A stretch of DNA of 64,000 nt, taken from NCBI RefSeq assembly GCF_036507355.1, contig NZ_AP027877.1. One strand, written 5' to 3'. This stretch comes from Escherichia coli (lineage in GTDB: Bacteria; Pseudomonadota; Gammaproteobacteria; Enterobacterales; Enterobacteriaceae). The notes beneath the pieces were generated by a model. It did no database searches. It had not been told where the DNA came from and saw only the letters and a list, made by a program, of their open reading frames with translations. Position numbers and translations under genes: made by a program. Shown here one piece after another: positions 1 to 7,429 of the stretch; positions within the stretch are counted from its first letter, which is position 1, and the number at the start of each line of letters is the position of its first letter.

Positions 1-2
1 TG

Positions 3-797
3 CGCGGGCAGTCTTCCATTACCGCGACTTTATATGCCGGTTTGCAACTGATCATGCCGGGCGAAGTGGCACCGAGTCATCGTCATAATCAGTCGGCGCT
101 GCGTTTTATTGTTGAAGGCAAAGGGGCATTTACCGCCGTTGATGGCGAACGCACGCCAATGAATGAAGGCGATTTTATCCTGACCCCGCAGTGGCGCTGG
201 CACGATCACGGTAACCCTGGCGACGAACCGGTTATCTGGCTCGATGGGCTGGATCTGCCATTAGTGAATATTCTGGGCTGCGGTTTTGCCGAAGATTATC
301 CGGAAGAGCAACAACCGGTAACGCGTAAAGAGGGAGATTATCTGCCGCGTTACGCTGCCAATATGTTGCCGCTGCGGCATCAGACGGGGAACTCCTCGCC
401 GATCTTTAACTATCGTTATGACCGCAGCCGCGAAGTGCTGCACGATTTAACCCGACTGGGCGATGCCGACGAGTGGGATGGCTACAAAATGCGCTACGTC
501 AACCCGGTCACCGGCGGCTATCCGATGCCGTCGATGGGCGCTTTCCTGCAACTGCTGCCGAAAGGGTTTGCCTCACGCGTTGCGCGTACCACTGACAGCA
601 CCATCTACCATGTGGTGGAAGGTAGCGGGCAGGTCATCATCGGCAATGAAACCTTCAGCTTTAGTGCAAAAGATATCTTCGTGGTGCCGACCTGGCATGG
701 CGTGTCGTTCCAGACCACGCAAGATTCCGTTTTATTTAGTTTTTCGGACAGACCGGTACAAGAAGCCCTGGGGCTGTTCCGCGAAGCGCGTTATTAA
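3..797 (+). CDS. gentisate 1,2-dioxygenase, C-terminal part (5' end lies before the window; mhbD-like)
   Basis: Open frame from position 3 with no stop; cupin-type motifs ([19 protein letters not shown], second cupin module); first gene of a D-H-I-M order matching known 3-hydroxybenzoate clusters. Confidence 0.7.
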
Positions 798-811
798 TTT
801 AGGAGAGAAAA

Positions 812-1513
812 ATGACTCAATACGTATTCGAACCGCAAGCGCCCGTTACCGTACCGGTTGTTGGCAGTGATGAACAATTCCCCGTGCGCCGCGTTTACTG
901 CGTCGGACGTAACTATGCCGCTCACGCCCGCGAAATGGGCTTTGATCCGGATCGTGAACCGCCATTCTTCTTCTGCAAACCGGCGGATGCCGTTGTTCCG
1001 GTTGCCGCTGGTGAAACGCTGGCGCTGCCGTATCCGGCACAGACCGATAACTACCATTACGAAATTGAACTGGTGGTGGCGATTGGTAAAAAAGGCAGCG
1101 ATATCCCGCTGGAACACGCCCATGAATATGTCTGGGGTTATGCCACGGGTCTTGATATGACTCGGCGTGACCGTCAAATGGAAATGCGCCAGATGGGCCG
1201 CCCGTGGGAAATCGGTAAAGCGTTTGATCTCTCAGCGCCCATCGCGCCGCTGCACAAAGCCCGCGATATCGGCGGTATTGATAATGCGCCAATCTGGTTA
1301 CAGGTTAACGGCGAAGATCATCAGCGCAGCGATATTCGCCATCTCATCTGGTCGGTGAATGAAACCATCAGCTATCTGTCAGGCTTCTTTGAGCTGCAAC
1401 CGGGCGATCTGATCTTCACCGGTACGCCGGAAGGGGTTGGCCCGGTAGTGAAAGGTGATGTGATCACAGGCAACGTCGAGGGCTTAACGCCTATCGCGGT
1501 GAAGATTGTCTGA
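812..1513 (+). CDS. fumarylpyruvate hydrolase (fumarylacetoacetate hydrolase family; mhbH-like)
   Basis: 233-aa ORF with FAH-fold sequence; RBS-like aggagag 8 nt upstream; 14 nt after preceding gene. Confidence 0.7.
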
Positions 1514-1518
1514 GGTGC

Positions 1519-2166
1519 ATGATGAAGCTGTACAGTTTTTTTAATAGTTCAGCGTCGTACCGGGTACGCATTGCGCTGGCGCTGAAAGGCATTAATTACC
1601 AGACCGAAGGGGTGAATATCCGTATTGGTCAGCAAAATGAACTGGCCTATCGGCGGATGAATCCGGTCGGGCTGGTGCCGACGCTGCTGACTGACGAGGG
1701 CGAATCACTCGGACAATCGCTGGCGATTATTGACTGGCTGGAGAGGCACTACCCGCAAGTTCCGCTGGTGCCGCAGGAAGAGCCGGCCCGCAACAAGGTG
1801 CTGGAAATTGTCTATGCCATCGCTTGTGATATTCATCCATTGAATAACTTGCGCGTGCTGCGCTACCTGACCGAAGAACTGAACGTCAGTGAAGAAGAAA
1901 AAAAACGTTGGTATGCGCACTGGATCCAGCAAGGGTTAAGCGCGGTGGAACAACTGTTGCGCCAGAACCAGTCGGGGCAATTTTGTGTGGGCGAGACGCC
2001 GACGCTGGCAGATTGCTGCCTTGTCCCGCAGTGGGCGAACGCGCTACGCATGAACTGCGATTTGAGCGGGTATCCACGCTGCAAAGCGGTGTACGACGCC
2101 TGCACACAGCTGCCAGCGTTCATTGCCGCAGCGCCAGAAAATCAACAAGATAAAATTTCAGCCTGA
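1519..2166 (+). CDS. maleylpyruvate isomerase (zeta-class glutathione S-transferase; mhbI-like)
   Basis: 215-aa ORF with GST N-terminal thioredoxin-like region (SSASYRVRIALALKGINY); 5 nt after upstream gene. Confidence 0.7.
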   Translation: MMKLYSFFNSSASYRVRIALALKGINYQTEGVNIRIGQQNELAYRRMNPVGLVPTLLTDEGESLGQSLAIIDWLERHYPQVPLVPQEEPARNKVLEIVYAIACDIHPLNNLRVLRYLTEELNVSEEEKKRWYAHWIQQGLSAVEQLLRQNQSGQFCVGETPTLADCCLVPQWANALRMNCDLSGYPRCKAVYDACTQLPAFIAAAPENQQDKISA

Positions 2167-2180
2167 CCAGGAGAACTATA

Positions 2181-3374
2181 ATGACGAAAGTGACACGCGC
2201 AGTAATTGTGGGAGGCGGGATCGGCGGTGCGGCAACTGCGCTGTCACTGGCCCGCCTGGGGATCAAAGTGGTGCTGCTGGAAAAGGCGCATGAGATCGGT
2301 GAGATTGGCGCGGGCATCCAGTTGGGGCCAAATGCGTTTTCGGCGCTGGACAGCCTCGGCGTCGGCGAAGTTGCCCGCCAGCGCGCGGTGTTTACCGATC
2401 ACATTACCATGATGGATGCGGTGAACGCCGAAGAAGTGGTGTGCATTGAAACCGGGCAGGCTTTTCGTGACCATTTCGGCGGCCCTTACGCGGTGATCCA
2501 CCGGGTTGATATTCACGCCTCGGTGTGGGAAGCGGTACTGACGCATCCGGACGTGGAATATCACACCTCCACCAACGTCGTGGATATTCGCGAGACGGAA
2601 GACGATGTCACCGTGTTTGACGATCGCGGCAATAGCTGGACCGGCGATATTCTGATTGGCTGTGACGGCGTGAAGTCAGTGGTGCGCCAGAGCTTATTGG
2701 GCGATGCGCCGCGTGTCACCGGACATGTTGTCTACCGTGCGGTTATCGATCGTGCCGATATGCCGGAAGATTTGCGCATTAACGCACCGGTACTGTGGGC
2801 GGGGCCGCATTGTCACTTGGTGCATTACCCTTTGCGCGGCGGCAAGCAGTATAACCTGGTGGTAACATTCCACAGCCGCCAGCAGGAAGAGTGGGGCGTG
2901 AAGGATGGTAGTAAAGAGGAAGTGCTCTCTTACTTTGAAGGGATTCACCCCCGTCCGCGCCAGATGTTGGATAAACCGACTTCATGGCGACGCTGGTCAA
3001 CCGCTGACCGTGAACCGGTGGCGAAGTGGGGAACGAAGCGCATAACGCTTGTGGGCGATTCGGCCCATCCGGTGGCGCAATATATGGCGCAGGGAGCCTG
3101 TATGGCGCTGGAAGATGCAGTAACGCTGGGTAAGGCGCTGGCGCAGTGTGAGGGTGATGCGGCGCAAGCCTTTGCGCTGTATGAGTCGGTACGAATTCCG
3201 CGCACCGCGCGCATCGTCTGGTCGACCCGTGAAATGGGGCGGGTTTACCACGCCGCAGGGGTAGAACGCCAGGTACGTAATCTGCTGTGGAAAGGGAAAT
3301 CGCAGGCAGAATTTTATCGCGGCATGGAGTGGTTGTACGGCTGGAAAGAAGATAACTGTTTGCAACCACGCTAA
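2181..3374 (+). CDS. 3-hydroxybenzoate 6-hydroxylase (FAD-dependent aromatic monooxygenase; mhbM-like)
   Basis: 397-aa ORF; N-terminal FAD dinucleotide-binding motif VIVGGGIGGAATALSLARLGIKVVLLEK; RBS aggaga upstream. Confidence 0.7.
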   Translation: MTKVTRAVIVGGGIGGAATALSLARLGIKVVLLEKAHEIGEIGAGIQLGPNAFSALDSLGVGEVARQRAVFTDHITMMDAVNAEEVVCIETGQAFRDHFGGPYAVIHRVDIHASVWEAVLTHPDVEYHTSTNVVDIRETEDDVTVFDDRGNSWTGDILIGCDGVKSVVRQSLLGDAPRVTGHVVYRAVIDRADMPEDLRINAPVLWAGPHCHLVHYPLRGGKQYNLVVTFHSRQQEEWGVKDGSKEEVLSYFEGIHPRPRQMLDKPTSWRRWSTADREPVAKWGTKRITLVGDSAHPVAQYMAQGACMALEDAVTLGKALAQCEGDAAQAFALYESVRIPRTARIVWSTREMGRVYHAAGVERQVRNLLWKGKSQAEFYRGMEWLYGWKEDNCLQPR

Positions 3375-4484: not shown

Positions 4485-4871
4485 TAGTGGAATCGCAGTT
4501 TATCAGAGACAATGAATCGCTTATTCAGCTTCATCATCTTGTTGCGCTCCTTTCATGAGCTAAGCCACATATTGCCACTGGCGCAAGGAGCGCGCAGGGG
4601 GAGGACAATCGCCTCCTCCCCCTGCACCCCCGGGCTCTGGCGAACAAAATCGCCGCTGCGCGGTACCTTCAGCTTATCCCCTTCGGCTACCGGGTCGGGC
4701 GCGAGGAAACGTCCTTGTAAGACGCGCCCTCAGCCCACATCCATGTGGGCTGCCCCGGCCTTCGGGGAACGCTTCAGCGATTTTGACGCCACCAACACCG
4801 GAGCTGTTTGCAAATCAAGTACACAAAATATCTAGTTCCTGACCTGACAACTTATATGTCATATCTGATTT

Positions 4872-4955
4872 TTAAAATATCATCTTAAATACGCCAGTCA
4901 CCACCAGTAGCCCAATCAGGAAAATAATCAATACAGCCCAGAGTATAATTTTCAT
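4872..4955 (-). CDS. yohP: 27-aa small inner-membrane protein YohP
   Basis: Hand translation of minus strand gives MKIILWAVLIIFLIGLLVVTGVFKMIF; single transmembrane helix; too short for the ORF track. Confidence 0.7.
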   Translation of the reverse strand: MKIILWAVLIIFLIGLLVVTGVFKMIF

Positions 4956-5178
4956 TGGCGTTCCTTTATTTGTGAGTGCTGAATAAGTATAGGAAAAAAC
5001 GAAGCCCTTTGCCGTTATCCATAAACGATTAAGATAAATCGGAAGATATCATTCACTTAGTGTATATTTTTCTGGATATGTCGTTTTATTGCTACTGATG
5101 TATTGCCACGCGAAACTAAAAAATATATCGCAACACACGGTAATCTCCGCGCACCTTTTCTTACCTGATTATTCCCCC

Positions 5179-6615
5179 ATGAATCGTGATTCCTTTTATC
5201 CAGCCATCGCCTGTTTTCCGCTGTTACTGATGCTGGCCGGGTGTGCGCCTATGCATGAAACCCGCCAGGCGTTAAGCCAGCAAACGCCCGCTGCACAAGT
5301 TGACACCGCATTACCCACGGCGCTGAAAAATGGTTGGCCAGACAGCCAATGGTGGCTGGAGTATCACGATAATCAACTCACTTCCTTAATTAACAATGCA
5401 CTACAGAACGCACCGGATATGCAGGTGGCTGAACAGCGCATTCAGTTAGCTGAAGCCCAGGCGAAGGCAGTTGCTACTCAGGATGGTCCGCAGATCGACT
5501 TTTCTGCGGATATGGAGCGGCAAAAAATGTCGGCAGAAGGGCTAATGGGGCCGTTTGCTCTGAACGATCCGGCCGCAGGTACGACCGGTCCGTGGTACAC
5601 CAACGGAACTTTTGGCTTAACGGCGGGCTGGCATCTCGATATCTGGGGAAAGAATCGGGCGGAGGTTACTGCCCGCCTGGGTACGGTTAAAGCACGGGCG
5701 GCGGAACGCGAGCAAACCCGCCAATTGCTGGCTGGCAGCGTAGCCCGCCTGTACTGGGAGTGGCAAACCCAGGCGGCGTTAAACACGGTCTTGCAGCAAA
5801 TCGAAAAAGAGCAGAACACCATTATCGCGACCGATCGCCAGCTATATCAGAACGGGATTACTTCTTCAGTTGAAGGTGTGGAAACCGATATTAATGCCAG
5901 CAAAACCCGGCAGCAGCTCAACGATGTCGCGGGGAAAATGAAAATTATTGAGGCACGGTTAAGCGCACTTACAAATCACCAGACAAAGTCATTGAAGCTT
6001 AAACCGGTCGCGTTGCCGAAAGTGGCAAGCCAGCTTCCTGATGAACTGGGGTACTCCTTACTGGCCCGGCGGGCAGATTTGCAGGCGGCGCACTGGTACG
6101 TTGAGTCATCGCTAAGCACCATTGATGCGGCAAAAGCGGCATTTTATCCTGACATCAACCTGATGGCCTTCCTGCAACAGGATGCGTTGCACTTAAGCGA
6201 TCTGTTCCGTCATTCCGCGCAGCAAATGGGCGTTACGGCAGGCCTGACGCTACCCATTTTCGATAGTGGTCGTCTTAACGCCAATCTCGATATCGCAAAA
6301 GCTGAAAGCAACTTGTCTATCGCCAGCTACAACAAAGCGGTGGTTGAAGCGGTGAATGACGTGGCGCGGACAGCCAGTCAGGTTCAGACACTTGCGGAGA
6401 AAAACCAGCATCAGGCGCAAATTGAGCGCGATGCCTTGCGTGTGGTAGGTCTTGCGCAGGCGCGCTTTAACGCGGGCATCATTGCTGGTTCCCGCGTCAG
6501 CGAAGCCAGAATCCCCGCGTTGCGTGAGCGGGCCAATGGCCTGTTATTGCAAGGGCAGTGGCTGGATGCCTCCATTCAACTCACTGGTGCGTTGGGCGGG
6601 GGTTACAAACGCTGA
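5179..6615 (+). CDS. mdtQ: outer-membrane efflux lipoprotein (OMF family), apparently intact
   Basis: Lipobox LLLMLAGC after start MNRDSF; 478-aa OMF/TolC-like sequence with no internal stop. Confidence 0.8.
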   Translation: MNRDSFYPAIACFPLLLMLAGCAPMHETRQALSQQTPAAQVDTALPTALKNGWPDSQWWLEYHDNQLTSLINNALQNAPDMQVAEQRIQLAEAQAKAVATQDGPQIDFSADMERQKMSAEGLMGPFALNDPAAGTTGPWYTNGTFGLTAGWHLDIWGKNRAEVTARLGTVKARAAEREQTRQLLAGSVARLYWEWQTQAALNTVLQQIEKEQNTIIATDRQLYQNGITSSVEGVETDINASKTRQQLNDVAGKMKIIEARLSALTNHQTKSLKLKPVALPKVASQLPDELGYSLLARRADLQAAHWYVESSLSTIDAAKAAFYPDINLMAFLQQDALHLSDLFRHSAQQMGVTAGLTLPIFDSGRLNANLDIAKAESNLSIASYNKAVVEAVNDVARTASQVQTLAEKNQHQAQIERDALRVVGLAQARFNAGIIAGSRVSEARIPALRERANGLLLQGQWLDASIQLTGALGGGYKR

Positions 6616-6667: not shown

Positions 6668-7429
6668 ATGGCACAGGTTGCGATAATTACCGCCTCCGAT
6701 TCGGGGATCGGCAAAGAGTGCGCATTATTACTGGCGCAGCAGGGGTTTGATATTGGCATTACCTGGCACTCTGATGAAGAAGGGGCAAAAGACACCGCGC
6801 GTGAGGTGGTTAGCCACGGCGTACGTGCGGAGATCGTGCAACTGGATCTCGGCAATCTGCCAGAAGGTGCGCAGGCGCTGGAGAAACTCATTCAACGGCT
6901 GGGGCGTATTGATGTGCTGGTGAATAATGCGGGCGCAATGACCAAAGCGCCGTTTCTTGATATGGCTTTCGATGAGTGGCGCAAGATTTTTACCGTTGAT
7001 GTCGATGGTGCATTTTTATGTTCGCAAATTGCTGCCCGCCAGATGGTGAAACAAGGGCAGGGTGGTCGCATCATCAACATTACGTCGGTACATGAACATA
7101 CGCCGCTGCCGGATGCCAGCGCCTACACAGCCGCTAAACATGCGCTCGGCGGGTTAACCAAAGCAATGGCGCTGGAGTTGGTCAGGCATAAGATTTTGGT
7201 GAACGCAGTCGCACCTGGGGCGATCGCTACGCCAATGAACGGCATGGATGATAGCGACGTGAAGCCCGACGCGGAGCCTTCGATTCCTCTGCGGCGTTTT
7301 GGCGCAACGCATGAGATTGCCAGCCTGGTGGCGTGGCTTTGTTCGGAGGGTGCAAATTACACCACCGGGCAGTCGTTGATAGTGGATGGCGGCTTTATGT
7401 TGGCGAATCCGCAGTTCAACCCAGAATAG
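6668..7429 (+). CDS. yohF: short-chain dehydrogenase/reductase
   Basis: N-terminus MAQVAIITASDSGIGKE (Rossmann TGxxxGIG) and 253-aa length. Confidence 0.85.
   Translation: MAQVAIITASDSGIGKECALLLAQQGFDIGITWHSDEEGAKDTAREVVSHGVRAEIVQLDLGNLPEGAQALEKLIQRLGRIDVLVNNAGAMTKAPFLDMAFDEWRKIFTVDVDGAFLCSQIAARQMVKQGQGGRIINITSVHEHTPLPDASAYTAAKHALGGLTKAMALELVRHKILVNAVAPGAIATPMNGMDDSDVKPDAEPSIPLRRFGATHEIASLVAWLCSEGANYTTGQSLIVDGGFMLANPQFNPE

Follow-up and report, generated by a model that had tools for sequence, protein, structure and literature searches.

Intact mdtQ in an Escherichia coli genome: a predicted orphan outer-membrane channel gene that is frameshifted in K-12

The mdtQ gene (formerly yohG) reads as an open frame in the E. 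coli DNA analyzed here, a stretch of 64,000 nucleotides hereafter called the window, and an earlier note on this DNA had suggested that the same gene is a pseudogene in K-12. The locus thus raises three questions: whether the frame is truly intact, whether its integrity is peculiar to this strain or K-12 is the exception, and what kind of protein an intact mdtQ would provide to the cell.

The mdtQ reading frame and the K-12 lesion

The mdtQ gene runs on the plus strand from an ATG at position 5179 to a TGA ending at position 6615, comprising 1437 nt (478 codons and a stop) with no internal stop codons. These limits come from the ORF listing, and both the match to the NCBIfam MdtQ equivalog model NF008524 and the RefSeq annotation of mdtQ in strain 33F4, which is 98.9% identical, give the same coordinates. 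The predicted protein begins with MNRDSFYPAIACFPLLLMLAGC, in which a lipoprotein signal peptide can be read directly over residues 1-22 (positions 5179-5244, plus strand), ending in the lipobox L19-A20-G21-C22 with the Cys22 codon at 5242-5244. The ORF listing and direct reading of the sequence therefore agree with the earlier description of a continuous 478 amino acid ORF with a lipobox and no internal stop. NF008524 was matched with 1025.7 bits (cutoff 650) over residues 1-478 of 478 and, judged by this full-length equivalog match, the mdtQ ORF is no chance ORF.

A longer frame of 508 amino acids that starts at a TTG at position 5089 is also open and in frame with mdtQ. We considered a 508 amino acid product starting at this TTG or at the ATG at 5098 and rejected it, since other genera do not keep this frame open and the NF008524 match begins at residue 1 of the 478 amino acid form. 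Alignment showed that E. albertii, Salmonella and Citrobacter have 2 nt fewer just before the mdtQ ATG, an indel that breaks the longer frame, so that the ATG at 5179 is the conserved start of the gene.

The suggestion that mdtQ is a pseudogene in K-12 proved correct. The gene is annotated as such in MG1655 (b2139, 1436 bp), and in a K-12-type genome it carries the PGAP flag "frameshifted". An alignment of the window with K-12 MG1655 and E2865 revealed 13 substitutions and a single indel between the window and K-12 over 1437 nt. The indel falls in a homopolymer at positions 5326-5330 (plus strand; gene nt 148-152, codons K50-N51), which reads AAAAA in the window and in E2865 and AAAA in K-12, where the missing A makes the frame diverge after K50 and leaves a predicted truncated product of 69 amino acids. 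The locus and flanks of the K-12 pseudogene, formerly split into yohG and yohH, are the same as those of the window, with a 1-base difference upstream. The alignment that the earlier note had called for thus found no frameshift in the window and a K-12 allele that is broken rather than equally intact.

Distribution of intact and broken alleles and selection on MdtQ

To place the window allele within the species, alleles were counted in complete RefSeq E. coli genomes, where the mdtQ locus was found in 5407 of 5426, as exact matches to a 61-nt probe across the A5 run and to the corresponding 60-mer for the K-12 A4 run. The in-frame A5 61-mer was present in 4587 of the 5407 genomes, so that at least 85% of complete genomes are in frame at the site of the K-12 lesion, a lower bound given the exact-match probe, and genomes that match neither probe exactly have nearby SNPs. 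The A4 60-mer was present in 355 genomes; all 60 of these that were listed are K-12 laboratory derivatives (MG1655, DH5alpha, DH1, C600, J53, NCM3722, AG100 and similar strains), and the A4 lesion appears confined to such derivatives. By these counts, an intact mdtQ is the norm of the species and not a peculiarity of this strain.

Database records give the same picture. The entry WP_338388257.1, "MdtQ [Escherichia coli]", is identical to the MdtQ encoded in the window and belongs to a cluster of 11156 members at 90% identity; the same protein is present on about 10 contigs in NCBI and Logan assemblies. MdtQ of other E. coli (O157:H7 Q8X659; WP_001078114.1) is encoded at the same yohP-mdtQ-yohF locus, the window MdtQ is 99% identical to the E2865 and 33F4 alleles, and the differences between the window protein and other E. 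coli MdtQ proteins are allelic only. [quoted passage not shown] As for the origin of the window itself, no more than 98.9% identity over 25 kb, and 99.3% in the mdtQ stretch, was reached by the best match to its positions 1-25000 among the 5426 complete genomes; the source lineage is therefore not closely represented in the complete RefSeq set.

Breakage of mdtQ is not limited to the K-12 lesion, though it is infrequent elsewhere. In an evenly spaced sample with 39 full-length matches, independent disruptions were found in 2 of about 37 non-K-12 genomes. In the chicken isolate VTB96775v (NZ_CP178634.1) a frameshift splits the gene into two ORFs, and in the bovine isolate OkiPb01710 (NZ_AP042666.1) IS421 is inserted after approximately codon 176. 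Independent truncations of mdtQ also accumulate in Salmonella Typhi and Paratyphi A (PMC9241588). The gene is dispensable, as K-12 lives without it and it is disrupted in two wild E. coli.

Full-length MdtQ orthologues were identified in E. albertii (94% identity), Salmonella (82%) and Citrobacter (81%). The dN/dS values of mdtQ (Nei-Gojobori) were 0.036, 0.065 and 0.061 against these three, respectively, and about 0.11 within E. coli (range 0.036-0.114), close to the 0.013-0.056 obtained for the neighboring dusC, yohC, pbpG and monooxygenase genes. Judged by these ratios, mdtQ is under strong purifying selection. C22 is invariant in an alignment of 40 homologues that reaches down to 26% identity, in which G226 and G433 also show little or no variation, and G21, C22, A23 and P24 are invariant in six aligned orthologues. 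The sole lineage-specific residue of the window allele is A398T, in a predicted helix spanning residues 359-431, at a position occupied by Ala in the other five of the six orthologues; H267 is shared with 33F4 and E. albertii, and is replaced by Asn in K-12 and E2865.

The dS of mdtQ against E. albertii, about 0.95, is approximately twice that of the flanking dusC, yohC, pbpG and monooxygenase genes (0.40-0.52), a difference that could reflect low expression with correspondingly weak codon bias, an allele of greater age, or recombination.

The proposal that the window allele may be functional finds indirect support in purifying selection, in the invariant C22 and the conserved glycines at the helical tips, in the predicted outer-membrane factor (OMF) fold described below and in synteny across genera. 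We consider that the window mdtQ is probably functional.

Genomic context, family and predicted structure

The neighbors of mdtQ are yohP, dusC, yohF, yohD and yohC. The gene yohP (4872-4955, minus strand, from the locus annotation), encoding a 27 amino acid small membrane protein, is the divergent upstream neighbor and is located between mdtQ and dusC (PMC12719787). Downstream, the ORF listing and annotation place yohF (6668-7429, plus strand), which encodes an SDR-family oxidoreductase and no efflux component, at a distance of 52 nt; a scan found no terminator-like site on the plus strand between the two genes, which are possibly co-transcribed. The position of mdtQ between yohP/dusC and yohF/yohD is the same in K-12, E2865, 33F4, Salmonella, Citrobacter and E. 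albertii, and the context in the last three comprises the gentisate island, dusC, yohP, mdtQ, yohD, yohC, pbpG and dld. The presence of yohF varies: it lies behind mdtQ in E. coli, Salmonella and a metagenomic relative of 59% identity, whereas Citrobacter and E. albertii have no yohF at this locus and yohD comes directly after mdtQ. No adaptor (MFP) or pump gene was found near mdtQ in any genome examined, with flanks of 3 kb, 5 kb or about 18 kb downstream.

Directly upstream of dusC, the window carries a 3-hydroxybenzoate/gentisate catabolic cluster (positions 1-3374, plus strand), which comprises gtdA (from position 1, cut at the window start), a gene for a FAH-family hydrolase (812-1513), maiA (1522-2166) and the 3-hydroxybenzoate 6-monooxygenase gene (2181-3374), all on the plus strand. 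This cluster is missing in K-12 and E2865, which have yohJ-yohK-cdd instead, and is present in Salmonella, Citrobacter and E. albertii, a distribution that suggests an ancestral cluster since lost from some E. coli.

In family searches, MdtQ matched the NodT model TIGR01845 with 274.4 bits (cutoff 210.05) and the Pfam OEP domain PF02321 in two stretches (105.4 bits). Scores below cutoff place it outside the TolC subfamily (TIGR01844; 52 bits against a cutoff of 225.15) and outside the MdtP family (NF007390; 356.8 bits against 597). By these matches, MdtQ is a NodT-subfamily outer-membrane-factor lipoprotein, whose lipidation is predicted from its lipobox. The residue that follows Cys22 is Ala and not Asp. 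Under the +2 rule, lipoproteins with no Asp after the lipobox Cys are sorted by Lol to the outer membrane, and sorting of MdtQ to this membrane is therefore expected.

An AlphaFold2 model, built on the alignment of 40 homologues, had a mean pLDDT of 82.2 and a pTM of 0.76. The model places four β-strands at residues 105-116, 139-153, 325-336 and 348-357 and long helices at residues 158-224, 230-265, 359-431 and 437-471, with G226 and G433 in the turns that end the two long hairpins. Four β-strands together with long antiparallel helical hairpins correspond to the OMF protomer fold, and the top Foldseek matches in the PDB were all outer-membrane factors, namely VceC (TM 0.85, E 3e-24), OprN, CusC, CmeC, OprJ, SilC and OprM (E values from about 1e-24 to 1e-20), with TolC scoring lower. 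By sequence, the closest solved relative is likewise VceC (140 bits, E 1e-39), and OprM, SilC and CusC scored about 84 bits.

Comparison with characterized channels defines what sets MdtQ apart. VceC of Vibrio cholerae (PDB 1YC9), the channel of the EmrAB-like MFS pump VceAB, is a lipoprotein OMF like MdtQ and shares about 25% identity with it; however, the VceC gene is accompanied by those for the matching adaptor and pump, whereas MdtQ has no linked adaptor or pump gene. MdtP (YjcP), the channel of the FUSC-type pump YtcA-MdtNOP, is 35% identical to MdtQ over 96% of its length, and both are NodT-type lipoproteins; mdtP, however, is the last gene of an operon with adaptor and pump, and mdtQ is an orphan in every genome examined. 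TolC of E. coli shares approximately 12-13% identity with MdtQ and, in contrast to MdtQ with its lipobox, is not a lipoprotein.

To gain insight into the pumps served by related channels, we analyzed the genomic context of the seven nearest clusters outside the MdtQ group (35-42% identity). Five of the seven lie immediately downstream of a FUSC-family pump, and three of these clusters (P0141, P0142 and P0143) are additionally preceded by YtcA and an AaeA-like adaptor. Another is found with an MFS pump and an EmrA-like adaptor, the context of the remaining one was not assigned, and an RND pump was adjacent to none of the seven. BLASTP showed that the FUSC-linked relatives share more identity with MdtP (40-54%) than with MdtQ (36-40%) and that the pumps and adaptors encoded beside them are MdtO- and MdtN-like, not AaeB- and AaeA-like; moreover, K-12 AaeX is a DUF1656 protein and not a member of the YtcA family. 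For these reasons, we rejected the context of the relatives as a pointer to the AaeXAB pump. From family and context, MdtQ is best described as an orphan paralogue of MdtP, on a branch of channels serving FUSC or MFS pumps rather than RND pumps.

On the pattern of its family, MdtQ would be synthesized with its lipoprotein signal peptide, receive a lipid on Cys22 and then be delivered to the outer membrane. A trimer may then form a TolC-like duct, with a 12-stranded β-barrel (four strands per protomer) and a long α-helical periplasmic tunnel, whose helix-turn-helix tips, carrying the conserved G226 and G433, would dock tip-to-tip on the periplasmic adaptor of an inner-membrane exporter. Substrates would leave the cell through this duct, giving MdtQ a putative role in efflux. 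Work by Sulavik in 2001, as cited in PMC11762307, reportedly described a phenotype of a yohG knockout with puromycin, acriflavine and tetraphenylarsonium; if obtained in K-12, such a phenotype is hard to reconcile with the pseudogene status of the gene there. A slight rise in susceptibility of mdtQ knockouts is mentioned at second hand (PMC11762307; PMC9241588).

Expression signals, alternative readings and implications

The region upstream of mdtQ contains a block, GATGTATTGCCACGCG(A/T)AACTAAAAAA (5097-5123, plus strand), that in the alignment is invariant in Escherichia, Salmonella and Citrobacter and has diverging flanks. This block may act as a promoter, an operator or a leader for mdtQ. 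Further non-coding blocks upstream of the gene, at approximately 5061-5075 and at 5148-5158 (plus strand), are also invariant in these genera. Reading of the sequence before the ATG at 5179 (TTATTCCCCCATG) showed no Shine-Dalgarno sequence, and a scan of the yohP-mdtQ intergenic region found no consensus sigma-70 promoter, suggesting that expression of mdtQ may be low or conditional. In E. coli the ATG at 5098 opens a frame that runs on into mdtQ, whereas in Salmonella, Citrobacter and E. albertii it would open an upstream ORF of about 29 codons whose TGA overlaps the mdtQ start. Since mdtQ has no Shine-Dalgarno sequence, a translational coupling or leader mechanism is conceivable. A scan against Rfam gave no significant match around mdtQ; a sub-threshold match to the TwoAYGGAY RNA in the dusC-yohP spacer (4647-4786, minus strand; 25.9 bits against a gathering threshold of 43, E 0.41) is probably due to chance.

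Taken together, we put at roughly 93% the probability that positions 5179-6615 hold an ordinary, ancestral and intact mdtQ, a gene for an orphan OMF channel, and that the K-12 pseudogene arose by a lineage-specific deletion of a single A and is not typical of the species. One alternative is that the frame only looks intact because sequencing or assembly miscalled the homopolymer and added one A, as the difference from K-12 is a single homopolymer base, a class of error that some platforms make. The identical A5 61-mer in 4587 complete genomes, the exact 478 amino acid protein on about 10 independent contigs and the in-frame A5 site in all orthologues from other genera make such an error exceedingly improbable. 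A different possibility is that mdtQ, although intact, is in effect silent: a cryptic gene, or one in decay, with hardly any expression, so that its unbroken frame would make no difference to the phenotype. Several observations are consistent with this: the missing Shine-Dalgarno sequence and sigma-70 promoter, the doubled dS against E. albertii, which would fit weak constraint on codon usage and low expression, the repeated independent loss of the gene (K-12, the two wild E. coli genomes and typhoidal Salmonella; PMC9241588), and the verdict of reviews that the function of MdtQ has not been elucidated (PMC11762307). However, dN/dS values of 0.036-0.114 up to synonymous saturation show that the protein has long been under selection, the lesion site is in frame in at least 85% of complete genomes, and the invariant upstream block implies a conserved control element, so that we regard a silent mdtQ as unlikely.

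A further alternative concerns the partner of the channel rather than the state of the gene. MdtQ could be the channel that AaeXAB, a pump for aromatic carboxylic acids, is missing, or that of another exporter now credited to TolC, a role that would have been overlooked because all the work used K-12, with its broken mdtQ. PMC8277102 lists AaeAB with a question mark in place of an outer-membrane partner ("AaeAB-?"), the pump served by the sister family MdtP is of the FUSC type and related to AaeB, and the ancestral neighbor of the mdtQ locus is the 3-hydroxybenzoate/gentisate island, which handles aromatic acids. Nevertheless, the FUSC-linked relatives are MdtP-like and have MdtO- and MdtN-like pumps and adaptors, AaeX belongs to DUF1656 rather than to the YtcA family, AaeAB confers tolerance to aromatic acids in K-12 strains that have no MdtQ, and linkage of mdtQ with aaeXAB was seen in none of the genomes examined. 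Accordingly, we hold this assignment to be very unlikely, and an ordinary, intact mdtQ that encodes an orphan channel remains our preferred reading of the locus.

For the window itself, this reading has little consequence, its mdtQ being the standard allele of the species, annotated as MdtQ in thousands of genomes; the contrast with K-12 informs on K-12 and not on this strain. K-12 is atypical at mdtQ: E. coli has four TolC-like channels, and the loss of a single A has deprived K-12 of one of them. Conclusions about outer-membrane partners drawn from K-12 alone cannot address MdtQ. A broader but unlikely idea is that intact MdtQ serves natural E. coli as a second general-purpose outer-membrane channel, for an exporter whose partner is unassigned or is taken to be TolC by default, and that K-12 genetics missed it. 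If so, the clients of MdtQ could include AaeXAB, the "relief valve" for aromatic acids, or an MFS pump of the EmrAB type, and restoring the single A in K-12 mdtQ would alter an export phenotype.
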